From: Megasphaera elsdenii DSM 20460
GTDB lineage: Bacteria > Bacillota > Negativicutes > Veillonellales > Megasphaeraceae
Assembly (NCBI RefSeq): GCF_003010495.1
Contig: NZ_CP027570.1
Span: 600,001-632,000, forward strand
Length of the DNA stretch: 32,000 nt
Reading direction: 5' to 3'
How positions within the stretch are numbered: the first letter of the stretch is position 1; each line of letters opens with the position of its first letter. Shown piece after piece: positions 5,842-29,401 of this stretch. The position numbers and the translations under genes were made by a program. Below the pieces are notes generated by a model, which searched no databases, had not been told where the DNA came from, and worked only from the letters and a program-made list of their open reading frames with translations.

Positions 5842-7397
5842 AACAATGGTTCTTAAAAAATCGGTACGGCTTGACCGTCGCCTTAGTGGCAGCAATCATC
5901 TTGCTGCCATTTTTAGGTGCTGCGCCCCTCATGGACCCGGACGAACCGGTCTACGGCGAAACGGCGCGGGAAATGCTGTTGGCCGGGGATTGGCTGTCGC
6001 CGCGCATTTTCGGCCAATATTGGTACGATAAACCACCACTCTTCTACTGGCTTGAAATGCTGTCATACAGCTTCTTCGGCATTTCCGACATCTCGTCCCG
6101 CCTGCCCAGCGTCATCATGGCCCTGGCCACGACACTGTACGTCTATGTCCAGGGGAAAGAATTATTCAATAAACCCATCGCCTTCCTCTCAGCCCTGCTC
6201 CTGGTGACCAGTGCGGGCTTCATGTATATCGGCAAGGCCGCCGTCACCGACATGACCCTCATGTTCACCCTGACGGTGACGATGATTTCCTTTTACCGTA
6301 AAAAGTATTATATAGCCTATATTTTCTGCGGCCTGTCACTCCTGGCCAAAGGCCCCGTCGGCTATGCCTTCCCGGCCCTGATCATGCTCATCTACCTGGC
6401 CTGGACACGGCAGTGGACGCTCATGAAACACATGAAGATCCCCCAGGGCATCCTGCTGGCTTTTGCCGTCGGCCTGCCCTGGTACTTCCTGATGTATAAG
6501 GTCCACGGCGAAGTCTTCCTGGACACCTTCATCGGCTATCACAACATCACCCGCTTCGCCGCGCCGGAACATCCGGGCCAGAACAGTATTTTCTTCTTCA
6601 TCCCCATCCTCTTCGCCGCTATGATGCCCTGGACAGCGGCCTTGTTCCCGACGCTCTGGCGACTGTTCAAAAAACGGGACCCCTTCCGGGATACGCTGCA
6701 GTACTGCCTGGTCTGGGCCGCGTTCATCTTCCTCTTCTTCTCCTTCTCCAAGACCCAGCTGGTCACGTACATTGCCCCCATGTTTCCGCCGACGGCTTAC
6801 CTGCTGGGCTGGTACGGCTACCGCTGCTATATCGAACGAAAATTCTCACGGCCCCTGCTCCTGACCTTATATCTCCTGGGGCTGGCCGTCCTAGCCTGTA
6901 ATGCCATCCCCCTCCACGAGGAAGCGTCCTTTTTCCGTCCGGCCATCCTCTGGGGTTCCTGCCTGCTGGCAGCGGCCTTGTTCCTGCCGGCGGTCTGCTT
7001 ATGGCGCCATTATTATCGGGCCGCTTTCATCGCCGGCATCGTGACCATGACCGCTTTCTCCTGGGCCGTTTTCGGCTTCATCATTCCCCAGTTCAAAGAC
7101 CATGTCACCTCCTATGACACGGCCCAGATCCTGCCGGACGTCTACGACGGCCATTCCATGCTCTATATCGAAAAGTTCCTGCGCCCGGGTATCTCCTATT
7201 ACAGCGGTATGTACGGGCGCGAGTGGGACCCCGTCAAGGACCCGGACCTGGAAGCCTTATTACAGACAAAGGATAAGATTTTCCTCATCATGTCGAAATC
7301 GACGTTCCACAAACTGGCCAAGTCCCAACACTTGATCGACCGCTTCGGTATCGCCGCCGAAACGCCGACGCAGGTCATCCTCATCAATCATCCCTAG
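5838..7397 (+). CDS. ArnT/PMT-like GT-C glycosyltransferase (PMT_2 type), copy 1
   Basis: 519 aa, more than 10 TM helices. N-terminal loop DPDEPVYGETAREMLLAGDWLSPRIFGQYWYDKPPLFYWL closely parallels the ArnT catalytic loop (DExxYxExxREM...W...KP). Translationally coupled to the DedA gene. Confidence 0.85.
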   Translation: MKQWFLKNRYGLTVALVAAIILLPFLGAAPLMDPDEPVYGETAREMLLAGDWLSPRIFGQYWYDKPPLFYWLEMLSYSFFGISDISSRLPSVIMALATTLYVYVQGKELFNKPIAFLSALLLVTSAGFMYIGKAAVTDMTLMFTLTVTMISFYRKKYYIAYIFCGLSLLAKGPVGYAFPALIMLIYLAWTRQWTLMKHMKIPQGILLAFAVGLPWYFLMYKVHGEVFLDTFIGYHNITRFAAPEHPGQNSIFFFIPILFAAMMPWTAALFPTLWRLFKKRDPFRDTLQYCLVWAAFIFLFFSFSKTQLVTYIAPMFPPTAYLLGWYGYRCYIERKFSRPLLLTLYLLGLAVLACNAIPLHEEASFFRPAILWGSCLLAAALFLPAVCLWRHYYRAAFIAGIVTMTAFSWAVFGFIIPQFKDHVTSYDTAQILPDVYDGHSMLYIEKFLRPGISYYSGMYGREWDPVKDPDLEALLQTKDKIFLIMSKSTFHKLAKSQHLIDRFGIAAETPTQVILINHP

Positions 7398-7407
7398 GAG
7401 GTATCCC

Positions 7408-9018
7408 ATGAAACAGCGCACCTTCCTGGCCGTCATCTTCATGGCGGCTTTCCTCTTCCTGGCCGCCGGCATCTCCCAGCTGGCCGTCACCGACCCGGTC
7501 GAATCGAATTACGCCCTGACGGCTTTAGAAATGGTCCGCAGCGGCGACTGGCTCTCTCCGCAGATTTACGGCACCTACTGGTATGATAAGCCCATTTTCC
7601 TGTACTGGCTCCTGAGCCTGTCCTACAGTCTTTTAGGTACGACCGACCTGGCTGCCCGCCTGCCGGCCGTCCTCTTCGGCGCAGCTTCATGCACCCTGGC
7701 GGCCTGGTTCGCCCTGCGCCAGACAGGACGCCGCCTGACAGCCATCCTCTTCGCCGCCATGACAGGCACGTCCCTCATCGGCTGGTTCATCAGCCGTTCT
7801 GTCATCACCGATCAGCCCTTGTATTTCTTCAGTGGCGCTACCTTGTTCTTCGCCTACATCGGCCTGACCGAAGGAAAGAAAAGCTACGTCACGGCAGCTT
7901 ATGTCATGGCAGCCGGCGCCGTCCTGACCAAAGGCCCGGTCGGCCTGGTCCTGCCCGGCCTGTTCCTGCTGCTCTTTATCGCCATCCAGCGCCGGTCCGA
8001 TTATCTTAAAAGACTTTTCCCGCCAGTCGGCATCGTCCTCTTTCTCCTCCTCTGCCTGAGCTGGTACGGTCCCATGTACAACCGCCATGGCATGGACTTC
8101 ATCGACGGCCTGCTGGGCTTCAACAACGTCGTCCGGGCCACCGTATCGGAACATCCCGAATACGATGTCTGGTATTATTATATCGTCCTCGTCCCGGTCA
8201 GCCTCCTGCCATGGACCGGTCCCTGCCTGTACGGCCTGTGGCGGCGGCGCAGCCATCACGATGAATACGTCTTCATGGCACTCTGGGCCTTGGGGACGAT
8301 TTTGTTCTACAGCCTCATGGCGACGAAATACCCGACATACGCGTACATCGCCAACTGGCCCCTCTTATATCTCGGCGCCTGCACGATGCAGGACTGGCTC
8401 GACGAAGACGCCCGCTATGCCTGGCTGGCAGCCCTCATCCCGGCTTCCCTTTACGGCCTGCTCTTCGCTTCGCTGACGGCCTTTACGGGAAAAACTCCTT
8501 TTCCGGTCCCGAGCCTGCTCTTGTTGACTGTCTTCCTGATCATCATGGCCATCCTGACCTGGCTGGCCTGGTGGCAGAAAGCTTATCTGGCCCTGCCCTT
8601 TTTCCTCGTCACGGCGACAGCCGTCACTTACCTCATCGTGACCTTCCAGGTCTTGGTGCCCTTCTATCAGTACCGGTCGGCCCAGACCTTGACGAGCCTG
8701 GCCAATCAGGGCCCGGTCTATTTCTTTGAAGAATACCGCACGTCCTATCCCTATTATACGGGACAGCCGGCATACTGGACGGCACCGGCGGACTACGATG
8801 AAAGCGCCCGGCTCCAGCGCGATGCCGTCTGGGCCAAGAAACACGTCTACCCGACAGAGGCAGAAGCTCAGGTCTTGACCAGACTGACCCAGCATCAGTC
8901 CCTGACGATCGTCGTCCCGGAAGGGAAATATAAGGATTATAAAGCCTCGAAATTTTTCAATCTGACCCATGAAACCGGCCAATCCGGCCCATACCACGTT
9001 TTCAAGCCCATTCCTTAG
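7408..9018 (+). CDS. ArnT/PMT-like GT-C glycosyltransferase (PMT_2 type), copy 2
   Basis: 536 aa. AGGAGG lies 6 nt upstream of the start, which is 10 nt after the copy-1 stop. The loop DPVESNYALTALEMVRSGDWLSPQIYGTYWYDKPIFLYWL is paralogous to copy 1. Confidence 0.85.
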   Translation: MKQRTFLAVIFMAAFLFLAAGISQLAVTDPVESNYALTALEMVRSGDWLSPQIYGTYWYDKPIFLYWLLSLSYSLLGTTDLAARLPAVLFGAASCTLAAWFALRQTGRRLTAILFAAMTGTSLIGWFISRSVITDQPLYFFSGATLFFAYIGLTEGKKSYVTAAYVMAAGAVLTKGPVGLVLPGLFLLLFIAIQRRSDYLKRLFPPVGIVLFLLLCLSWYGPMYNRHGMDFIDGLLGFNNVVRATVSEHPEYDVWYYYIVLVPVSLLPWTGPCLYGLWRRRSHHDEYVFMALWALGTILFYSLMATKYPTYAYIANWPLLYLGACTMQDWLDEDARYAWLAALIPASLYGLLFASLTAFTGKTPFPVPSLLLLTVFLIIMAILTWLAWWQKAYLALPFFLVTATAVTYLIVTFQVLVPFYQYRSAQTLTSLANQGPVYFFEEYRTSYPYYTGQPAYWTAPADYDESARLQRDAVWAKKHVYPTEAEAQVLTRLTQHQSLTIVVPEGKYKDYKASKFFNLTHETGQSGPYHVFKPIP

Positions 9019-18316: not shown

Positions 18317-18356
18317 AAAAAAAGAGGCTGTCGCACGTGCGACAGCCTCTTTTTTT
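18317..18356. terminator. Bidirectional terminator shared by convergent genes
   Basis: A7 run, GAGGCTGTCGCAC/GTGCGACAGCCTC (perfect 13-bp palindrome), T7 run. The T-run overlaps the GGDEF gene stop. Confidence 0.9.
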
Positions 18357-19572
18357 ACGAACTTTTATTGATCCATGTTGCCATTTCGTGCAGGCCGGCT
18401 TCGGCTTTTTCCATATCGAAGGGCTCACCAAAGACGCGGTTCCGCCCGGCAGCTTTGGCTTTATAGAGCAATTGGTCGGCCCGGGCGAACATCGTCCGCA
18501 AAGAAACAGCTCCTTCACAGTATCCCCAGGTATAACCGCCGCTGACGGTGGGATGGCGCTGCACGGCCTCGAAGGGCTGCTTACACAGCTGATTCTGGAA
18601 GATTTCGACATAATGCTGGAAGCCGTCATGGGGCATAAAGGAGATAATGAGAAATTCGTCGCCGCCATAGCGGTAGACGCCGGTATAGCCAAAGTGCTTT
18701 TGAAAGAGCCGGCTGACAACGGATAAAATCTCATCGCCCCGGATATGACCATAGGTATCATTGTAGAATTTGAATTGGTCGATATCACAGATCATGACGC
18801 AAAGGGCCTTGCCAAAATACTGTTCAAAATCTTCCCGCAGTGCTTCGCGGTTCAGAAGGCCCGTGAGCTCGTCGGTCCGGCTACGCTGATAGAACTCTTC
18901 ATTGCGGGACCGGAGAGTCATGCGGACCTGAGCAAAAGATAAAGCCAGATGACGCCTGGAAAAGATGATGACCAGACAGACCAGGTAAAATAAGACGATA
19001 TCATATTGATCCTGCCAGGGCACTTCATGCCCCGTCACATCGATGACAGCGAACGTCGTGACCAGATTGACGGCGATGATGGGAATCAAGACCTTGATAT
19101 TATCATAAATAGGCAGTAAATAGACCAGGATGAGTATGAGCAGGTATTCAAAGAAGAAACTGCTCCCGTTCTGGGTCGTAAAAAAGGAAAGACACGCCAG
19201 CGACGAATCGATGAGCAAAAAAACGTAGACCAAGTCATCTAACAGTTCCTCATCTTTTACGACTTCCCGAAGACATTGATAGAAACAGGCCAAAAAGACG
19301 AGATTGATGCCAAAAATCACCAAATAGACAGTCGTCGAATTAATAGTCGTCAAAACGGCGCCTACTGCCCTTGGCGCATAGGTTCCAACAAAACCGGTCA
19401 TGGAAATGATACACAATAAACAGGCAACAAAGCTGCAAGCATAGAGATTATCCCGGATTTTCCGTTTTTTAAATTCCGGGTCCGATAAAATAGCCTGGAT
19501 ATCTTGAAAATCCCCTAGCGTCCTTTGGAACAGCTGCTGGATATATTTTTGTAAATATATGATAAATTTCAT
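18355..19572 (-). CDS. Membrane-anchored diguanylate cyclase (GGDEF domain)
   Basis: 405 aa. The N-terminal half has about 6 TM helices. The C-terminal part reads RTDELTGLLNR...ICDIDQFKFYNDTYGHIRGD...YRYGGDEFLII with an intact GGDEF motif. No RxxD I-site lies 5 residues upstream of it. Confidence 0.9.
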   Translation of the reverse strand: MKFIIYLQKYIQQLFQRTLGDFQDIQAILSDPEFKKRKIRDNLYACSFVACLLCIISMTGFVGTYAPRAVGAVLTTINSTTVYLVIFGINLVFLACFYQCLREVVKDEELLDDLVYVFLLIDSSLACLSFFTTQNGSSFFFEYLLILILVYLLPIYDNIKVLIPIIAVNLVTTFAVIDVTGHEVPWQDQYDIVLFYLVCLVIIFSRRHLALSFAQVRMTLRSRNEEFYQRSRTDELTGLLNREALREDFEQYFGKALCVMICDIDQFKFYNDTYGHIRGDEILSVVSRLFQKHFGYTGVYRYGGDEFLIISFMPHDGFQHYVEIFQNQLCKQPFEAVQRHPTVSGGYTWGYCEGAVSLRTMFARADQLLYKAKAAGRNRVFGEPFDMEKAEAGLHEMATWINKSS

Positions 19573-19644
19573 GCAAAAGCCCCCAATTGTATATACTTAT
19601 CGTATCAAAACAAATGGGGGCTTGCAAGGGCTCATGTAATGAAC

Positions 19645-20649
19645 TTAATGATTTCCTGGTACCGCTTCGATAAGGGGCTTCGCTTCAGCAGCCCGTTCCT
19701 TGGCTTCATGGGCTTCCATGTGACGGGCAAAGATACCCGCCAGGATAGAGCCGGTTACCTGATGGATAGCGGCACCGACAGCGGCAGGAATGGCGACGGC
19801 AGGCGCAAAGAAGACCGAAACCAGCGAAATGGCCAGGGCGTCGTTCTGCATGCCGACTTCCAGTGTAACCGAATGTTGCTGCTTTTTCCCTAAGCCCAAT
19901 TTCCCCGTAACAAAATAACCGATGAGGAAACCACCGAGATTGTGCAGGAGGACCATGAGAATGATAAAGATGCCCATGTCCAGGATCTTAGCCCCATTGA
20001 TGGCAATAACGCCGCCGACGATGACCAGGACACCAAAAGCGGATACGAGGACCAGTACCTTCGACAGGGAGGCAATATGCTTTTCCCCCATCAGGCGGTG
20101 CGTCAACAAGCCGAGGACCAGGGGAACCAGGATGACTTTCATGACCGTCATGGCCATAGCCATAAAGGAAACTTCGACCCACTGGCCGGCCAGGCCCCAG
20201 ACGATGAAAGGCATCATAATGGGCGCCAACAACGTCGAACAAGTCGTAATGGAAACGGACAAGGGGACATCCGCCTTGGCCAGGAACCCCATGACGTTCG
20301 ACGCCGTCCCACTGGGACAAGAACCGAGGAGGATCATGCCGACGGCGATTTCCGGCGGCATTTCAAAAGCCAGGACCAGGGCATACGCCAGCAGCGGCAT
20401 AATCGTATAATGAGCCGTACAGCCGATGAGGACTTCCTTCGGCCGCTGGACGATCAACTTGAAATCCCGGGCGTGGAGCGTCATGCCCATACCGAACATG
20501 ATGACGCCTAGCAACAAGACCGTATGCGGAACGGCCCAGAGAAAGGCATTGGGCATGAAATACGCCCAGATGACGACGAGAAAGACGATATACGTCAAAT
20601 TTTTCCCAACAAAACCGCTTAACTTTCCAATGAAATCCATCATAGTCAT
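19645..20649 (-). CDS. Bile acid:Na+ symporter (BASS/SBF) family transporter, paralogue 1
   Basis: Track ORF 19645..20685. Start at ATG 20649-20647 (MTMMDFIGKL...) after GAAAGGA. Family signatures GMGMTL, LLGSCPSGTASNV and EVGMQN are present. Confidence 0.85.
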   Translation of the reverse strand: MTMMDFIGKLSGFVGKNLTYIVFLVVIWAYFMPNAFLWAVPHTVLLLGVIMFGMGMTLHARDFKLIVQRPKEVLIGCTAHYTIMPLLAYALVLAFEMPPEIAVGMILLGSCPSGTASNVMGFLAKADVPLSVSITTCSTLLAPIMMPFIVWGLAGQWVEVSFMAMAMTVMKVILVPLVLGLLTHRLMGEKHIASLSKVLVLVSAFGVLVIVGGVIAINGAKILDMGIFIILMVLLHNLGGFLIGYFVTGKLGLGKKQQHSVTLEVGMQNDALAISLVSVFFAPAVAIPAAVGAAIHQVTGSILAGIFARHMEAHEAKERAAEAKPLIEAVPGNH

Positions 20650-20709
20650 GCACATCCTTTCCAAAATAAGACCTGATAAATACAAATACGCAAACGGTTT
20701 TGATGGAGC

Positions 20710-20989
20710 AAAAAAAAACTTTGCCTCTAAAAAGAGACAAAGTATTCACTCTGCGGTACCACTCTCATTGTCGTAACGACCACTTTTCCAGCATCTCCGG
20801 GACAGCCCATGTAATGCCTGGCAAGGTAACGGTTGCCTGCCGGCTGCGTCTACTAACAAAATGCGTTCGGGCAGCAGCTCCTGGACGACTTCACGCCGGG
20901 ATCCCATCCTGCCTCTCAGCCACCAGCAGGTCTCTGTCATAGTTTCCCAAACCTTACTACTTCCATTCAACACTGTTTTGTATTTGTTG
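20710..20989 (-). promoter_or_regulatory. T-box leader (probable Val specifier GUC) upstream of BASS paralogue 1
   Basis: Minus-strand elements: AGUAGUA specifier-loop 5' side; AGAGA bulge plus distal loop CCUGC-UGGUGGCUGAGAG-GCAGG; GAA-GUC-G at comp(20887-20889); T-box sequence AAUGAGAGUGGUACCGCAG (20769-20751); terminator CUUUGUCUC-uuuuu-AGAGGCAAAG followed by U9 (20742-20710). Confidence 0.8.
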
Positions 20990-20995
20990 GTGCTT

Positions 20996-21024
20996 ATTAT
21001 ATCGCGTCACCTCTGAATTGTCAA
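20996..21024 (-). promoter_or_regulatory. Promoter of the BASS T-box leader
   Basis: Minus strand reads TTGACA (21024-21019), 17-nt spacer, TATAAT (21001-20996). Confidence 0.7.
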
Positions 21025-21690: not shown

Positions 21691-21966
21691 ATACACGAAT
21701 AGGCTGTGGTCAATCATCACAACGGGCCGTCCTGGCCGGGACGGCCCCTACGCAGGCGGCATATAGCCGCATTATTTTTCATCGCCTATATGCGATGCCA
21801 TAGGGGACGCCCAAAGGGCGTCCCGCTTGATACACGGATAGGCTGTGGTGGAATATCACAGCGGGCCGCCCTGGCCGGGACGGCCCCTACGCAGGCGGCA
21901 TATAGCCGCATTATTTTTCATCGCCTGTATGCGATTTCGTAGGGGACGCCCAAAGGGCGTCCCGCG
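21691..21966. repeat. Tandem 2 x 139-bp direct repeat made of nested hairpins (REP/BIME-like)
   Basis: Unit 1 spans 21691-21829 and unit 2 spans 21830-21966, roughly 90 percent identical by eye. Each unit contains CTGTGGT/ATCACAG, GGGCCG(T/C)CC-tggcc-GGGACGGCCC, GCGGC-atata-GCCGC, ATCGC-ctrtat-GCGAT and GGGACGCCC-aaa-GGGCGTCCC. Confidence 0.85.
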
Positions 21967-22027
21967 TGCAATCCTGTAAATGGCCAAAGCATGTATGATG
22001 AGGGGGCACATAATCGCAATACCCTCA

Positions 22028-22829: not shown

Positions 22830-23837
22830 TTAATGGGCTGCTGTGGGTGATACGGCAGCGGCTTTCTGGTCGGCTTCGTAGTTAGAATCAAAGCGTTTGT
22901 TCAGATAGTTGACGTAAAGATAAGCCAGGACGGCGCCGGAAATGTTATGCCATGCACTGAAGACAGCCCCGGGGACACCAGCCATGGGCAGCGAGGCAAA
23001 GTGAGCTTTTGCCAGGCCCGTAGCCAAACCGGAGTTCTGCATGCCGACTTCGATGGACAAGGCGACCATTTTCTTCCAGCTCATGCCGCAGAGATGGCCG
23101 ATGAAGAATCCCAGGGCATAGCCCAGGCAGTTGTGCAGGATGACGACCAGCAGGATGATACCCGAACTGTTGAGGATAGCATCGCGGCTGGCGCCGATGA
23201 TGCCGGCAATGAGGAAGGAAATAGCCAGAGACGAAACGGCCGGCAAGTAGTCCGTCGCCGTATCAGCCAGCTTCGGCAGGAAGCTCTTGACGACGAGGCC
23301 CAGGGCAATGGGGACAATGACGATCTGCAAGATAGATAAGAACATGCCCACAGGGTCAAAAGAAATACGCTGACCGATGATAAGGTACGTCAAGAGCGGC
23401 GTCATGATCGGCGAAATGAGCGTCGACACACTGGTCATCGTAACCGACAGGGGGACATCTCCTTTACTCATGAAGGTGATGACATTGGACGACGTACCGC
23501 CCGGGCAGGTGCCGACGAGGACGACGCCGACGGTCAGCGCCGGGTCGAGATGGAACAGCGTCGAAAGGACGTACGCCAGGAAAGGCATAACGAGATACTG
23601 GGCACAGGCGCCAAAAAAGACATCTTTCGGCCGCTTGAGGACCAAGGCGAAATCGTGGACGCTCATGGTCATGCCCATACCGAACATGATGATGCCGAGA
23701 AGGACAGAGAGGACGGAAACACCGCCGACTTTTCCGAGGACCCAGGAAAAGCTCGTCGGCAGGGTCATGCCGATGATGAGGAAGATGACGGCGAGGACGC
23801 CGAAATATTTGCCGATGAGGGCACAGACTTTTTTCAT
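22830..23837 (-). CDS. Bile acid:Na+ symporter (BASS/SBF) family transporter, paralogue 2
   Basis: Track ORF 22830..23954. Start at ATG 23837-23835 (MKKVCALIGKYFG...) 7 nt after AAAGAGGT. GMGMTM, LVGTCPGGTSSNV and EVGMQN motifs. Clearly paralogous to 19645..20649. Confidence 0.85.
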   Translation of the reverse strand: MKKVCALIGKYFGVLAVIFLIIGMTLPTSFSWVLGKVGGVSVLSVLLGIIMFGMGMTMSVHDFALVLKRPKDVFFGACAQYLVMPFLAYVLSTLFHLDPALTVGVVLVGTCPGGTSSNVITFMSKGDVPLSVTMTSVSTLISPIMTPLLTYLIIGQRISFDPVGMFLSILQIVIVPIALGLVVKSFLPKLADTATDYLPAVSSLAISFLIAGIIGASRDAILNSSGIILLVVILHNCLGYALGFFIGHLCGMSWKKMVALSIEVGMQNSGLATGLAKAHFASLPMAGVPGAVFSAWHNISGAVLAYLYVNYLNKRFDSNYEADQKAAAVSPTAAH

Positions 23838-23875
23838 AATGAATACCTCTTTTAACACAGTATGTTTATAAATGC

Positions 23876-23945
23876 AGAAAAAGAAACCTCCTGCCCCAGA
23901 AGGGAATTCTCCGAAGTTCCGAAGAAGCCCTGCCGGGGCAAGAGG
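23876..23945 (-). terminator. Large-loop hairpin plus U-tract between ilvD and BASS-2 (possibly a leaky terminator)
   Basis: Minus strand reads CCUCUUGCCCC (23945-23935), a 37-nt loop, GGGGCAGGAGG (23897-23887), then UUUCUUUUUCU. The stem is 11 bp including one G-U pair. Confidence 0.45.
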
Positions 23946-23961
23946 TGAAATCAAAGACGGT

Positions 23962-25623
23962 TTATTTCATGACAGCGCCAGTGTTGGCAGACGTGACGAG
24001 TTTGGCGTAGCGGGACAGATAGCCTGTCTTGACTTTCGGTTCCGGCTGTTTCCATTCAGCCTTGCGTTTTGCCAATTCTTCGTCGCTGACTTCCAATTCC
24101 AGCTTACGATTGGGGATATCGATGGAGATAGTATCCCCGTCGTGTACCAGGGCCAGCGGACCGCCTTCCATGGCTTCCGGCGAGATATGGCCGATGCAGG
24201 CGCCACGGCTGGCACCGCTGAAGCGGCCGTCTGTCAGGAGAGCGACTTTCAAGCCCATACCGGTGATGACAGCTGTCGGGTTTAGCATTTCGCGCATGCC
24301 CGGACCGCCTTTCGGGCCTTCGTAGCGGATGACGACGACGTGGCCTTCTTTGATTTCACCGCCGATGATAGCGGCAATAGCAGCTTCTTCCGAATCATAG
24401 CATTTAGCCGTGCCCTTGTAGACCAAAAGGTCCGGTTCGACGGCACTTTCTTTGATGACCGAACCGAGGGGAGCCAGGTTGCCTTTGAGGACGGCAATGC
24501 CACCTTTATGCATATAAGCATCTTCGACGGAATGAATGACTTCGTGGTTGAGGATCTTCGCGTCTTTGATGCGGTCGCCGACCGTACCGGTAATGGTCTG
24601 GGCATCGGTATGGATGAGGCCTAATTTAGAGACTTCTTTCATGACGGCGCAGATGCCGCCGGCTTCATCGAGGTCCTGCATATGGTAGGTGCCGCCAGGG
24701 CTCATCTTGCAGATATAGGCGGCCTTACGGCTGATTTCGTCAAATTCGTCGAGCGAGAGGTCGACGCCGGCTTCATGGGCAATAGCCGGTAAATGAAGGG
24801 CCGTATTGGTCGAACCACCGATAGCCATGTCAACGGCAATGGCATTTTCAAAAGCTTCGAGAGTCATGATGTCGCGCGGTTTGATATCCTTGCGGACCAA
24901 ATCCATGACGACCTGGCCGGCTTTCTTAGCCAGCATGCGGCGCAAGCCCGTGTAGGCAGCCGGAATGGTGCCGTTGCCGGGAAGGCCCATGCCGAGGACT
25001 TCGGTCATACAGTTCATGGTGTTGGCCGTGAACAGACCGGAGCAGGAACCGCAGCCCGGGCAGGCCTGAAATTCCATCTGGTGCATTTCTTCCGGCGTCA
25101 TCTGGCCCGATTCCACTTTACCAGCGGCTTCGAACATGGTGCTGACGCTGATGTTCTTGCCGTTGTGGCGGCCGGCGAGCATAGGACCGCCACTGACGAC
25201 GACGGTCGGGATATTGAGACGGCCGGCAGCCATGAGCATGGCCGGTACGATTTTATCGCAGTTCGGGATGAGGACCAGGCCGTCGAAAGCATGAGCTGTG
25301 GCAACGGCTTCGATGGAGTCGCAGATCAGTTCGCGGCTCGAAAGGGAGAAGCTCATGCCGCGATGCCCCATGGCGATGCCGTCGCAGACGCCGATGGACG
25401 GAAATTCAATCGGTGTACCGCCGGCAGCGGCTACGCCGAGTTTGACAGCTTCGGCAATATCGCGTAAATGGATATGGCCGGGAATGATTTCATTGAAGGC
25501 ATTGCAGATGCCGATCAACGGCTTCTGTAAATCTTCGTCACTATAGCCCATAGCGTGGAACAAAGTACGATGGGCGGTTCGGGTAACGCCCTTTTTAACA
25601 ACATCACTGCGCATGGTATTCAT
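23962..25623 (-). CDS. ilvD: Dihydroxy-acid dehydratase
   Basis: 553 aa: [27 protein letters not shown]...CDKIVPAML...[17 protein letters not shown]... Full-length IlvD/Edd family protein with Fe-S cluster cysteines. Confidence 0.95.
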
Positions 25624-25631
25624 CCTTTCTC

Positions 25632-26135
25632 TTACATATCTTTAACAGCTTCTTCGCCGCGAGACAGGGAAATCTGGCCGGTCCGGGCAATTTCAATAAT
25701 ATCATAATCTTTCAGCATTTCCAGAAGGGCCTCGATATGGTCTTCCCGGCCCGTCAGGCGCAGGACCAGGGAACGGCGCTGGACGTCGACAATCTTGGCG
25801 TTGAACAGCTGAGCGATATTTGTCAATTCTTCGCGGGTCTGGGGCGTCGGGCTCTTGACTTTGATCATGGCCAGTTCGTAGCTGACGAAAGGCGCGTCGT
25901 CGAGATTGACGACTTTGATGACGTCGATGAGCTTGGCCAGCTGGTTGACAGCCTGGTCGAGTTCCCAGCGGTTTTCGACGGAAACGACGATATTGATCCG
26001 CGTGACGTCGGCTTCTTCAGTATAGCCGGCGTTGATACATTCAATATTGATGGCTCTGCGGCTGATCAGGCCGGATACGTGGGTCAGTACGCCCGGTTTG
26101 TTGTCGCAGAGAATGGCGATATGTTGTCTCATCAT
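25632..26135 (-). CDS. ilvN: Acetolactate synthase small (regulatory) subunit
   Basis: 167 aa. ACT domain [34 protein letters not shown]... The start overlaps the ilvB stop (ATGA). Confidence 0.9.
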
Positions 26136-27829
26136 TTCCCTTCACCTCCCAACACCATCTGGTCCAGGCGCTTACCGCCGGGAACCATGGGATAGACATT
26201 TTCATCGGCCGGAATGAAGACATCGAGCAGTGCCGGACCTTCTGTCTGGAACAAGTTTTCTACGGCTTTGGCCAGGTCTTCCGGCTTATGGACGGCTGTC
26301 CCGGGGACCCCCATGGATGCCGATACGGCCGTCAAATCGGGATTATCGTTGATGACGGATTCGGCACAGTGGCCGTTGTAGAACATGCGCTGCCACTGAT
26401 TGACCATGCCCAGGACATTGTTGTGGAGGACGATGGTCTTGACATCGACGCCATATTTATGGAGGGTTGCAAATTCCTGGCAGTTCATCATGATACTGCC
26501 ATCACCAGTGAATAAGACGACTTTCGACTTGGGACAGCCTAATTTAGCTCCCATAGCAGCCGGCAGGCCATAGCCCATGGTGCCTAAGCCGCCAGAGGTG
26601 ACGAAGCGGCGGGGCTTGTTCAGGTCAAAGAACTGAGCCGCCCACATCTGGTGCTGGCCGACGTCGGTGACGACAATCGTGTCATCATCAGTCCATTTCT
26701 GGACTTCTTCAAAGAGCTTCTGCGGCGAAACGGCATCGGCAAGGTCCCGCGTGGCGAAGGGATGAGCGGCCTTCATATCGAGGACGAAAATCCGCCATGC
26801 TTCGTAGCGGTCAGCCAGGTGCGTTTCATGGGCCGCCAGCTTTTCGTCGAGGAGCGGCAGGGACCAGCGGAGGTCACCGTTGACGCTGATGTCAGCGTGG
26901 ACAATCTTGTTGATTTCTACTTTATCGATATCGAAGTGAACGATCTGCGCGTTCGGTGCGAAATTTTCGACGTCGCCTGTGACACGGTCGTCGAAACGGG
27001 CGCCGATAGCGACTAAGAGGTCGCATTTGGTAACAGCCATGTTGGCCGCATAGGAGCCGTGCATGCCGACCATGCCCAAGTGGGCGTCATACGTGTCGGG
27101 GACGCAGCCCTTGCCCATGAGCGTCGTCACGACAGGGACATGCATTTGCTGGACAATGTGTTTCAACCGATCCGACATGTTGGAAAGGACGACGCCGCCA
27201 CCGGTAAGGATGACCGGGCGCTTGGCCTTTTCAATGGCTTCGACAGCGCGGTCGACATCGGCTTCACGGCCGACGTGACAACCTTGATAGCCGCGCAGAT
27301 GAACTTCTTCGGGATATTCAAATTCAAAAGGTGTATCGAATACATCCTTGGCAATATCGACAAGGACCGGCCCGGGCCGGCCTGTAGTTGCGATGTAAAA
27401 GGCTTCTTTCAAGACCCGGGGCAATTCCTTGACGTTCTTTACTAAATAGTTGTGTTTCGTAATCGGTGTGGTAATACCGGAAATATCAGCTTCCTGGAAG
27501 GAGTCGCGCCCGATGAGAGGCGTAGCCACCTGGCCGCTGATGACGACGAGAGGAATGGAATCCATGTTGGCCGTGGCAATGCCGGTAACCATGTTGCAGA
27601 CGCCAGGTCCGGACGTAGCAAAGCAGACACCGGGCTTACCCGTGGCACGGGCATAGCCGTCAGCGGCGTGGACAGCTCCCTGTTCGTGTCCTGTCAGGAT
27701 ATGGGGAAATTTGGCTTTATATAATTCATCATATAACGTCAGGACAGCCCCGCCGGGATAGCCGAAGACGACTTGTACCTGTTCACGTTTCAAGCATTCG
27801 ATCACTGCTTGTGCTCCGGTCATTTTCAT
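26132..27829 (-). CDS. ilvB: Acetolactate synthase large subunit (biosynthetic type)
   Basis: Track ORF 26132..27853. Start at ATG 27829-27827 (MKMTGAQAVIECLKREQVQVVFGYPGG...) 6 nt after GAGGTG. ThDP motif GGLGTMGYGLPAAMGA...GDGS..MN. Confidence 0.95.
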   Translation of the reverse strand: MKMTGAQAVIECLKREQVQVVFGYPGGAVLTLYDELYKAKFPHILTGHEQGAVHAADGYARATGKPGVCFATSGPGVCNMVTGIATANMDSIPLVVISGQVATPLIGRDSFQEADISGITTPITKHNYLVKNVKELPRVLKEAFYIATTGRPGPVLVDIAKDVFDTPFEFEYPEEVHLRGYQGCHVGREADVDRAVEAIEKAKRPVILTGGGVVLSNMSDRLKHIVQQMHVPVVTTLMGKGCVPDTYDAHLGMVGMHGSYAANMAVTKCDLLVAIGARFDDRVTGDVENFAPNAQIVHFDIDKVEINKIVHADISVNGDLRWSLPLLDEKLAAHETHLADRYEAWRIFVLDMKAAHPFATRDLADAVSPQKLFEEVQKWTDDDTIVVTDVGQHQMWAAQFFDLNKPRRFVTSGGLGTMGYGLPAAMGAKLGCPKSKVVLFTGDGSIMMNCQEFATLHKYGVDVKTIVLHNNVLGMVNQWQRMFYNGHCAESVINDNPDLTAVSASMGVPGTAVHKPEDLAKAVENLFQTEGPALLDVFIPADENVYPMVPGGKRLDQMVLGGEGK

Positions 27830-27900
27830 CTCATTCACCTCATCATAAAACATAACGCATACTTACAAAGAAGCTATTCTTCACTCAACCCGCTTCTTGG

Positions 27901-27974: not shown

Positions 27975-29015
<1,041 letters not shown>

Positions 29016-29056: not shown

Positions 29057-29366
29057 AAAAAAAACTCCGCCCCTCACTGAGGGACGGAGTACTATTCCGC
29101 GATACCACCCTGATTCCCGGTGCATTGCTGCAACCAGGCTCTCTACAACGTACCAACATACGCGTTTCCTATAACGTGGAAAAATCGTCAGTGCTTAATC
29201 TTGCTTCAGCACTTCTCTTCGGGGATGATTTTCAATCGCCATTCATTACCGGCTCGCACCAGCCGCCGGTTCTCTGGGAATGTCCGGACGAACTACTCTT
29301 TCCCGTCATCAGATTTCACTATATGCTTTTGCGAGCCGTTATCGTTGCGGCCCGTTTGAAAAGCTT
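29057..29366 (-). promoter_or_regulatory. T-box leader of the ilv operon (probable Ile specifier AUC)
   Basis: Minus-strand elements: K-turn CUGAUGA; AGAGUAG; CCAGAGAACCGGCGGCUGGUGCGAGCCGG distal Stem I; GAAA-AUC-A at comp(29227-29229); T-box AAUCAGGGUGGUAUCGCGG (29115-29097); terminator ACUCCGUCCCUCAGUGAGGGGCGGAGU followed by U8 (29092-29057). Confidence 0.85.
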
Positions 29367-29372
29367 GAACAC

Positions 29373-29401
29373 ATTCTACAAAAACCTGCGCCGTTTGTCA
29401 A
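29373..29401 (-). promoter_or_regulatory. Promoter of the ilv T-box leader
   Basis: Minus strand reads TTGACA (29401-29396), 17-nt spacer, TAGAAT (29378-29373). Confidence 0.7.

Follow-up and report, generated by a model that had tools for sequence, protein, structure and literature searches.

A T-box leader read as valine specific precedes a BASS-family transporter gene in Megasphaera elsdenii, and a putative binding-site residue of the transporter covaries with the specifier codon

RESULTS

A T-box leader lies upstream of a BASS transporter gene

We analyzed a 32,000-nucleotide stretch of Megasphaera elsdenii DSM 20460 (contig NZ_CP027570.1, positions 600,001 to 632,000; hereafter the window) to follow up an original prediction, made from the letters alone, that a T-box leader with a probable valine specifier drives a transporter gene from the family of bile acid:sodium symporters (BASS). 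All features of this unit lie on the minus strand, from 21024 to 19645 of the window. It opens with a sigma-70-type promoter, TTGACA-17-TATAAT (21024..20996), which matches the consensus at 12 of 12 positions, is the top site in a scan of the 11 kb between 19000 and 30000, and stands ∼17 nucleotides (nt) upstream of the start of an Rfam T-box match (RF00230; 20979..20730). This match comprises Stem I, Stem II, Stem IIA/B, Stem III, and the antiterminator; it scores 103.0 bits against a gathering cutoff of 93 (E = 6.3e-22) and covers model positions 1 to 219 of 219 without truncation. The Stem I AGUA motif, the AGAGA bulge, and the distal loop each align with the family consensus. The T-box sequence AGAGUGGUACCGCAG (20765..20751) does not vary among the 25 orthologous leaders described below and contains the UGGU (20761..20758) that would pair with the 3′ ACCA end of a tRNA.

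Two alternative structures can form at the 3′ end of the leader. An antiterminator helix with a 7-nt UGGUACC bulge (20766..20732) fits the 3′ element of the Rfam consensus and folds to −8.3 kcal/mol with the bulge exposed. The intrinsic terminator, recovered both by folding and by a hairpin scan, consists of an 11-bp stem (20743..20718) and a U9 tract (20717..20709) and folds to −14.1 kcal/mol (z = −5.9; none of 200 shuffled sequences folds as well). The 3′ arm of the antiterminator is the 5′ arm of the terminator, so that the two share one strand, and since the terminator is the more stable of the two, the default state should be off, as is usual for this class of RNA. Thus, the consensus promoter, the complete leader with its Stem I landmarks and GAA-GUC-G specifier loop, the T-box sequence, and the U9 terminator claimed in the original prediction are all present, and the antiterminator/terminator alternative on which it depended was found as well.

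When the whole 281-nt leader was folded by minimum free energy, the T-box architecture was missed and the result did not outperform shuffled sequences (z = −0.16); only the terminator proved robust. For the overall structure, we turned to the covariance model and to covariation. In an alignment of the 25 orthologous leaders, 43 pairs are base-paired in 96% of cells, compared to 37 to 47% when the partners are slid, and 21 pairs change in a compensatory way. The score for covariation is 0.404, compared to at most 0.113 in the slid controls, and none of 500 shuffles reaches it. Three pairs at the base of the terminator stem (alignment columns 285 to 287 with 316 to 318) covary too. Judged from its sequence, the leader is a bona fide transcriptional T-box and an ordinary member of its family.

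The gene behind this leader, here called BASS1 (20649..19645), encodes 334 amino acids from an ATG at 20649, with alternative in-frame ATG starts at 20643 and 20640. The assignment of its product to the BASS/SBF permeases proved correct (Pfam SBF PF01758, 142 bits against a cutoff of 24.3). BASS1 aligns end to end with ASBT_NM (3zux/3zuy/8oyf; residues 3 to 315, 250 to 253 bits), and its nearest named homologue, from Megasphaera massiliensis, is 92 to 93% identical. It scores below the cutoffs of both NCBIfam models that it resembles, that is, the TIGR00841 "bass" subfamily (233 bits; cutoff, 326.3) and, as second-best match, the PanS equivalog NF047939 (221.7 bits; cutoff, 400).

The specifier codon is read as GUC

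In the covariance-model alignment, the specifier loop of Stem I reads GAA-GUC-G on its 3′ side (20892..20886), which places the candidate codon GUC at 20889..20887 and a flanking purine at 20886. The loop is bounded by the helices UGGA/UCCA and columns 32 to 37/92 to 97 of alignment A2, both of which show compensatory changes. Under the rule of the T-box database TBDB, the specifier comprises nucleotides 2 to 4 of the bulge in Stem I, counted from its 3′ end. Ile and Leu are usually specified by AUC and CUC, and specifiers ending in C are preferred (PMC7778990). GUC sits in this standard frame, and we therefore read the specifier as valine. Across the clade of related T-box-linked genes, the loop takes the form GAA-GUC-R (the window and its nearest relatives), GAA-CUC-R (L007 from Megasphaera cerevisiae and L170), or GAA-N-AUC-A (the rest, with AUC-C in Phascolarctobacterium). 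Only the first codon base varies, giving AUC, GUC, or CUC, all of them codons for branched-chain amino acids; UUC was never seen. The leader of the ilvCBND operon in the same window has a like loop architecture and reads AUC, which serves as an internal calibration. The reading of GUC as valine is supported by the frame, and the closest orthologues keep GUC and its purine (L001 to L006, L008, L009, L011, L086, and L087); in the rest of the clade, AUC or CUC takes its place, and valine appears to be derived.

Bacterial tRNA-Val, tRNA-Ile, and tRNA-Leu carry the discriminator base A73, which the UGGU of the T-box sequence fits. This fit is one reason for rejecting the +1 frame, in which all copies would read Ser (UCG/UCA/UCC). 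That frame would also leave no unpaired base before the helix, would turn the ilv-operon loop into a Ser reader as well, and would push out of the codon the very base that varies and covaries with the protein. UCA and UCG are, moreover, rare Ser specifiers, at 6% and 3% (PMC7778990). The −1 frame was rejected because it yields an incoherent set of amino acids.

The T-box/BASS unit is conserved in a branch of Negativicutes

Of 80 sampled genome loci encoding BASS homologues, 25 share at least 57% identity, and every one of these has the T-box core TGGTACCGC 113 to 147 nt upstream; they belong to Megasphaera, Acidaminococcus, Phascolarctobacterium, and uncultured Veillonellaceae or Selenomonadales. 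The 55 loci with at most 48% identity all lack this core in the ∼450 nt adjoining the gene. Of the 25 orthologous loci, 24 have an RF00230 match above the gathering cutoff, with L008 below it, and in a neighbor-joining tree the T-box-linked proteins form one clade. The flanking genes vary between loci and lie mostly on the opposite strand, which indicates that the unit is monocistronic and self-contained.

A putative binding-site residue changes with the specifier

Binding-site positions are given in ASBT_NM numbering, which we verified against nine residues named in the paper on its pantoate complex (PMC10645422). In that structure, pantoate is contacted by Ile203, the backbone of Gly267, and His294 with Asn295; Ile207 should encounter the substrate as the elevator moves, and residues 199 to 207 fall within the binding-site definition (PMC10645422). 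The BASS1 counterpart of Ile207 is Val211 (codon at 20017..20019) on transmembrane helix 7 (TM7), and it changes together with the T-box specifier. All 37 leader-gene pairs follow one rule, which spans at least three apparently separate switches: position 207 is Val in every GUC or CUC copy and Leu (Met in Phascolarctobacterium) in every AUC copy. Within the 25-locus genome set, columns 207 and 211 alone separate the Val/Leu copies from the Ile copies; they sit on TM7, removed from Ile203 by one and two helical turns. The main Val clade is split from the Ile copies by 14 columns, of which just these two also differ, in the matching direction, between the members of a tandem pair described below. 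The rule at 207 holds in the metagenome pairs too, where an Ile-reading sublineage inside the Val clade has Leu207. Residue 211, perfect in the genome set, was discarded as a second determinant, since L207/I211 copies carrying AUC turned up among the metagenome and prospective pairs.

For a prospective test, proteins were picked by their TM7 sequence alone, the contigs were then fetched, and the specifier was read last. Residue 207 foretold the specifier in seven out of seven cases: the two Val207 proteins came with GUC (P0097) and CUC (P0060), and all five Leu207 proteins came with AUC (P0078, P0080, P0101, P0110, and P0111). This set leaves out P0119, which had no usable DNA, and P0073, whose contig was too short upstream. 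Given this coupling, we take the substrate to carry the amino-acid side chain and the copies to be tuned to it.

Duplication accompanies many of the specifier switches

Because the basal branches (Phascolarctobacterium and one Acidaminococcus copy) read Ile, isoleucine specificity appears to be ancestral in the T-box BASS clade and valine specificity derived. Switches often follow duplication, which is a known theme for T-boxes (Vitreschak 2008, as reported by a citing paper). An Ile copy is accompanied by a Leu copy in M. cerevisiae (L018 and L007, respectively) and by a Val copy in the metagenome-assembled genome CAVKOP (L012 and L005, respectively), and locus L015 (2103-4990; also L162/L163) holds two T-box/BASS units in tandem. 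The proteins of this tandem pair are 87% identical and their leaders are closely alike by eye; the first copy combines AUC with Leu207 and the second GUC with Val207, which makes L015 a compact natural pair for swaps. A sublineage next to M. massiliensis and inside the Val clade (L090, L091) has gone to AUC. Two tandem leaders of L095 were left out because of internal deletions, probably an assembly collapse.

At L089 (∼6580-7890), a BASS1-type leader (loop GAAACAUCA, Ile) precedes a BASS gene with an ASBT_NM-type pocket. The encoded protein is 42% identical to BASS1 and 52% identical to the second BASS protein of the window, BASS2, and its gene occupies the syntenic position after a UDG-family gene. 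This arrangement is either a natural leader-gene swap or an assembly chimera (coverage, ∼2.6×).

The binding pocket of the T-box clade departs from that of ASBT_NM

All T-box copies have Val203, Ala267, Ala or Gly at 291, and Gln295, in place of Ile, Gly, Ser, and Asn in ASBT_NM. Three of the pantoate-contact residues are therefore altered in every copy (Ile203 to Val, Gly267 to Ala, and Asn295 to Gln), whereas Asn265 and His294 are kept. BASS2 and nearly all of the 55 non-T-box relatives retain I203/G267/S291/N295; among those that do not, the nearest outgroups (L024, L034, and L047) have one or two residues in common with the clade, and L041 likewise deviates at three positions. S266D and Q77H occur in Megasphaera and most Acidaminococcus T-box copies. 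Based on these alignments, the pocket of the T-box clade has diverged from that of ASBT_NM, and presumably also from that of PanS, at the positions that contact pantoate. Together with the PanS and TIGR00841 scores below cutoff, this makes BASS1 a BASS-family member and not a PanS orthologue.

The crossover-helix motifs TASN and EVGMQN are conserved in BASS1, as are positions 114, 115, 128, 132, and 260 to 264, of which 114, 115, 128, 132, and 260 belong to the Na1 site; at the Na2 site, Gln77 is replaced by His. For the Na+-site residues other than Ser114 and Asn115, we take the assignments to be those of the ASBT_NM structure paper. Ser114 and Asn115 are named as Na+-site residues in the pantoate-complex paper (PMC10645422).

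An ilv operon and further BASS paralogues

A second T-box lies in the same window (29318..29077, minus strand; RF00230, 126.7 bits), behind a promoter that matches the consensus at 11 of 12 positions (29401..29373). Its specifier loop, GAAAAUCA, reads AUC (Ile), and behind it on the minus strand follow ilvC (27975-28985), ilvB (26132-27853), ilvN (25632-26135), and ilvD (23962-25623). The window thus appears to hold both an Ile-controlled biosynthetic operon and a Val-controlled transporter.

The gene for BASS2 (22830..23840, minus strand) follows ilvD. Its product is 35% identical to BASS1 and keeps an ASBT_NM-type pocket. The adjacency of ilvD and BASS2 is kept down to 72% identity (loci L082 to L096, L102, and L136 to L146); a T-box stands directly before ilvD-BASS2 in L136 (AUC) and L102 (CUC), and in L099 one with AUC lies directly upstream of a BASS2-like gene. 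Cotranscription in the window is uncertain, given a terminator-like hairpin (23903..23887) between ilvD and BASS2. Pantoate resembles the IlvD substrate 2,3-dihydroxy-isovalerate, which gives rise to the idea that BASS2 takes up dihydroxy acids.

A third BASS paralogue is found in M. elsdenii, Megasphaera sp. MJR8396C, and one metagenome contig, in each case directly downstream of the pan motif RF01749 (L052, 3782-3877; L070, 3757-3848; L148, 5099-5196), a candidate pantothenate-related cis-regulatory RNA in Rfam. This paralogue carries an ASBT_NM-type pocket and, in these organisms, probably represents the true PanS-like carrier of pantoate. With T-box, ilvD-linked, and pan-motif lineages side by side, regulatory RNAs seem to sort the BASS paralogues by pathway.

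Some further features surround the T-box/BASS unit. A GGDEF-domain gene (18355-19572, minus strand) starts 72 nt past the BASS1 stop codon on the same strand; the spacer (19573-19644) holds, by eye, a long-loop hairpin (AGCCCCCA...UGGGGGCU) followed by UUUUGC, and read-through from the T-box unit into the GGDEF gene may occur. This neighbor is missing at the M. massiliensis locus L001. On the other side, between the start of a UDG-family gene and a DUF554 gene, lies a 139-nt tandem duplication (21691-21968; two copies, 91% identical), each copy of which carries GC-rich palindromes and a terminator-like hairpin. In the Ile-type lineage of P0111, a D-2-hydroxyacid dehydrogenase gene (L165/L166, 1-240) lies upstream of the BASS gene in the same orientation and ends ∼460 nt short of it, a weak hint at 2-hydroxy or 2-oxo acid metabolism.

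DISCUSSION

Our data favor the view that BASS1 is an importer, controlled by valine tRNA, of valine or of a 2-oxo or 2-hydroxy acid with the valine skeleton, which we hold to be likely. Under this reading, BASS1 would be a single-gene unit governed by transcription attenuation. RNA polymerase would start at the consensus promoter and transcribe the T-box leader, whose Stem I GUC would pair with the anticodon of tRNA-Val. If that tRNA is uncharged, its free 3′ end would pair with the UGGU in the T-box bulge and stabilize the weak antiterminator over the terminator, so that transcription could proceed into BASS1. The product would be an elevator-type carrier, probably Na+ coupled, within a Negativicutes-specific branch in which each member would answer to its own Ile, Val, or Leu T-box. 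BASS1 would thus import its substrate when the charging of valyl-tRNA drops, and the sister copies would act likewise for isoleucine and leucine. In this scheme, the anatomy of the RNA, its conservation, the switches of specifier, and the covariation of RNA and protein are seen in the sequences, and we infer tRNA dependence, transport direction, ion coupling, and substrate identity; the direction follows T-box logic, which calls for an uptake function that raises the valine pool.

As for the substrate, the original prediction had proposed a link to branched-chain amino acids, and this has gained support from the AUC- and CUC-reading relatives, the covarying binding-site residue, and the presence in the window of an ilvCBND T-box and an ilvD-linked BASS gene. 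Relatives that read Ile or Leu, with a pocket residue that changes along with the specifier, suggest that the branch carries branched-chain amino acids or their carbon skeletons and probably not bile acids. Pyruvate or another common precursor was rejected as the substrate because the tuning follows the side chain. The crossover helices of ASBT_NM read both the carboxylate and the C2 substituent of the substrate (PMC10645422). In the T-box clade, the retained Asn265 and the gained Asp266, which is not universal, lean weakly toward a C2 group that donates hydrogen bonds, either amino or hydroxyl. A more specific role for Asp266, as partner of the α-amino group, was set aside as speculation: the residue is absent in Phascolarctobacterium and could be a helix N-cap. 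Sequence does not separate the four candidates that we infer, that is, valine and 2-oxo-, 2-hydroxy-, and 2,3-dihydroxy-isovalerate.

Several observations weigh against such an importer, or against parts of the argument for it. (i) To our knowledge, no characterized BASS member carries an amino acid. The pantoate-complex paper is in line with this (PMC10645422). (ii) In BASS1, His80 replaces the Na2-site Gln77 of ASBT_NM, so that Na+ coupling may differ; His at this position is also found in a few Clostridium and Sporolactobacillus relatives, with Gln elsewhere. (iii) The Leu-specifier copies keep Val207, and this residue thus does not separate Val from Leu, while the size logic at 207 is not obvious in that the larger residue, Leu, pairs with the larger substrate, Ile. 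(iv) Gene conversion between tandem copies could blur the number of independent switches, some of the leader-gene pairs come from low-coverage metagenome contigs, and the tree is a neighbor-joining tree without support values. (v) The base after the specifier codon in Phascolarctobacterium is C (AUC-C) and not a purine. (vi) The window contains no tRNA gene; the cognate would be tRNA-Val(GAC).

The most serious competitor to import tuned to the side chain is that the paralogues differ in regulation only, each putting the same activity under a different tRNA sensor. Just this was proposed by Wels et al. for the T-box-regulated BrnQ/LIVCS paralogues (PMC2494555), and the 87% identity of the Ile and Val tandem copies, as well as the residue 207 that Leu-specifier copies share with Val copies, would fit it. 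Yet residue 207 tracks the specifier without exception over at least three apparent switches, with seven out of seven prospective calls correct, and, among the columns of the 25-locus genome set, is one of just two that separate Ile from Val/Leu copies. Without functional tuning of some kind, such a pattern is difficult to account for, and we regard a purely regulatory divergence as unlikely.

A different substrate is conceivable as well. Allison and Peel are said to have found, in 1971, that Megasphaera (then Peptostreptococcus) elsdenii makes valine from isobutyrate by reductive carboxylation, and BASS1 could accordingly import isobutyrate, and its sisters 2-methylbutyrate or isovalerate, for reductive carboxylation followed by transamination. 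Our literature search on reductive carboxylation in Megasphaera found nothing. Branched-chain fatty acids are abundant in the gut and rumen, and side-chain-dependent tuning at 207 would suit them equally. However, crossover helices that read a carboxylate plus a C2 substituent, as in ASBT_NM (PMC10645422), are a worse fit for a substrate lacking the latter, short fatty acids are able to pass through membranes unaided, and none of the loci examined has a linked oxoacid:ferredoxin oxidoreductase gene; we give fatty-acid import only a slim chance.

Slimmer still is the chance that BASS1 is a PanS-like transporter of pantoate or ketopantoate under valine control, whose import of a precursor would spare 2-oxoisovalerate, the shared precursor of valine and pantoate, for valine. 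The rank of the PanS model as second-best match (221.7 bits) and the end-to-end alignment with the pantoate-binding ASBT_NM (250 to 253 bits) point in this direction, but the PanS score is far below its cutoff of 400, the pantoate-contact positions 203, 267, and 295 are all altered in the T-box clade, and other Megasphaera hold a separate BASS with an ASBT_NM-type pocket behind the pan motif; the Ile and Leu specifiers and the coupling at 207 would also be left unexplained. Finally, an exporter or a carrier of bile salts or xenobiotics, with T-box control incidental or a relic, would accord with the family name, the human members that concern bile acids, and the gut habitat of the host, but it has next to no credibility in view of a T-box that is conserved and intact in 25 of 25 orthologous genome loci from at least three named genera, a specifier that evolves among branched-chain codons only, and a pocket residue that covaries with it.

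Beyond the import of valine or a valine-skeleton acid, we tentatively raise a bolder possibility, for which the odds are somewhat against us: the T-box clade may comprise the first BASS proteins to carry amino acids, which are zwitterions, instead of organic anions, with Val/Leu versus Ile preference tuned by a single TM7 residue, 207, that has repeatedly coevolved with one specifier nucleotide. In a weaker form, the T-box clade and the ilvD-linked BASS2 could scavenge cross-fed branched-chain intermediates (2,3-dihydroxy, 2-oxo, and 2-hydroxy acids) in gut communities. Bacterial BASS proteins are widespread and usually annotated as bile-acid symporters, almost none of them with a known substrate. 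In the present case, the attached RNA switch names the pathway: one branch appears to answer to the charging of Val, Ile, or Leu tRNAs, its sister goes with ilvD, and the third is preceded by the pan motif. This provides substrate predictions for a family that is studied structurally as a model of human NTCP/ASBT, along with a single-residue specificity hypothesis, at position 207, that is open to mutagenesis. It also suggests that Negativicutes in the gut have a dedicated means of acquiring branched-chain amino acids or the precursors of these. The clade further illustrates how, after duplication, a tRNA-sensing leader changes specificity together with the protein under its control; if our interpretation is true, riboswitch and cargo protein have done so naturally and in step.

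As far as we found, no earlier description exists of a cargo residue changing in lockstep with a specifier. Wels et al. list ABC, APC, DAACS, LIVCS, MFS, NHAC, and NSS as T-box-regulated transporter families (PMC2494555), and the absence of BASS from this list fits the earlier suggestion that the family is new among them. A full-text literature search combining T-box with bile-acid symporter returned nothing relevant, nor did one on bacterial BASS with branched-chain or 2-keto terms among the best 12 of 64 matches; the supplements of the RegPrecise RNA-regulon paper do not mention BASS, and the literature searched contained no transport studies of the T-box BASS clade. Database annotations probably already show the T-box beside these genes; what is new is the interpretation and not the detection.

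Among known BASS carriers, those closest to BASS1 are the pantoate/ketopantoate carriers ASBT_NM (3zux, 3zuy, and 8oyf) and Salmonella PanS; it has full-length homology to ASBT_NM and keeps the crossover motifs and the Na1-site residues. It differs from ASBT_NM by I203V, G267A, S291A, and N295Q, joined by S266D and Q77H in the Megasphaera/Acidaminococcus copies, and from the PanS type in being controlled by a T-box, where the latter is associated with the pan motif or with genes for pantothenate. Plant plastid BASS5/BAT5 and BASS2 carry 2-keto acids and pyruvate, respectively, and show that BASS proteins can transport small 2-oxo acids, including chain-elongated amino-acid skeletons. These are eukaryotic organellar proteins without RNA-switch control and are likened to BASS1 by family only; pyruvate, the substrate of plant BASS2, is unlikely for the T-box clade, whose tuning follows the side chain.

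In its regulation, BASS1 most resembles the BrnQ/LIVCS carriers of Bacilli, Lactobacilli, and Clostridia, where a T-box likewise lies directly before a secondary transporter gene (PMC2494555). Both systems use Ile, Leu, and Val specifiers, both have paralogues under different specifiers within one genome, and both would follow a like logic in which uptake is turned on when the tRNA is uncharged. The LIVCS family and fold are, however, unrelated to the BASS/SBF elevator fold, and a pocket residue that covaries with the specifier, as in the BASS1 clade, is not reported for LIVCS. Nearer at hand, the T-box of the ilv operon in the same window is like that of BASS1 in architecture and differs in its specifier, AUC compared to GUC, and there, too, a BASS gene is tied to branched-chain control.

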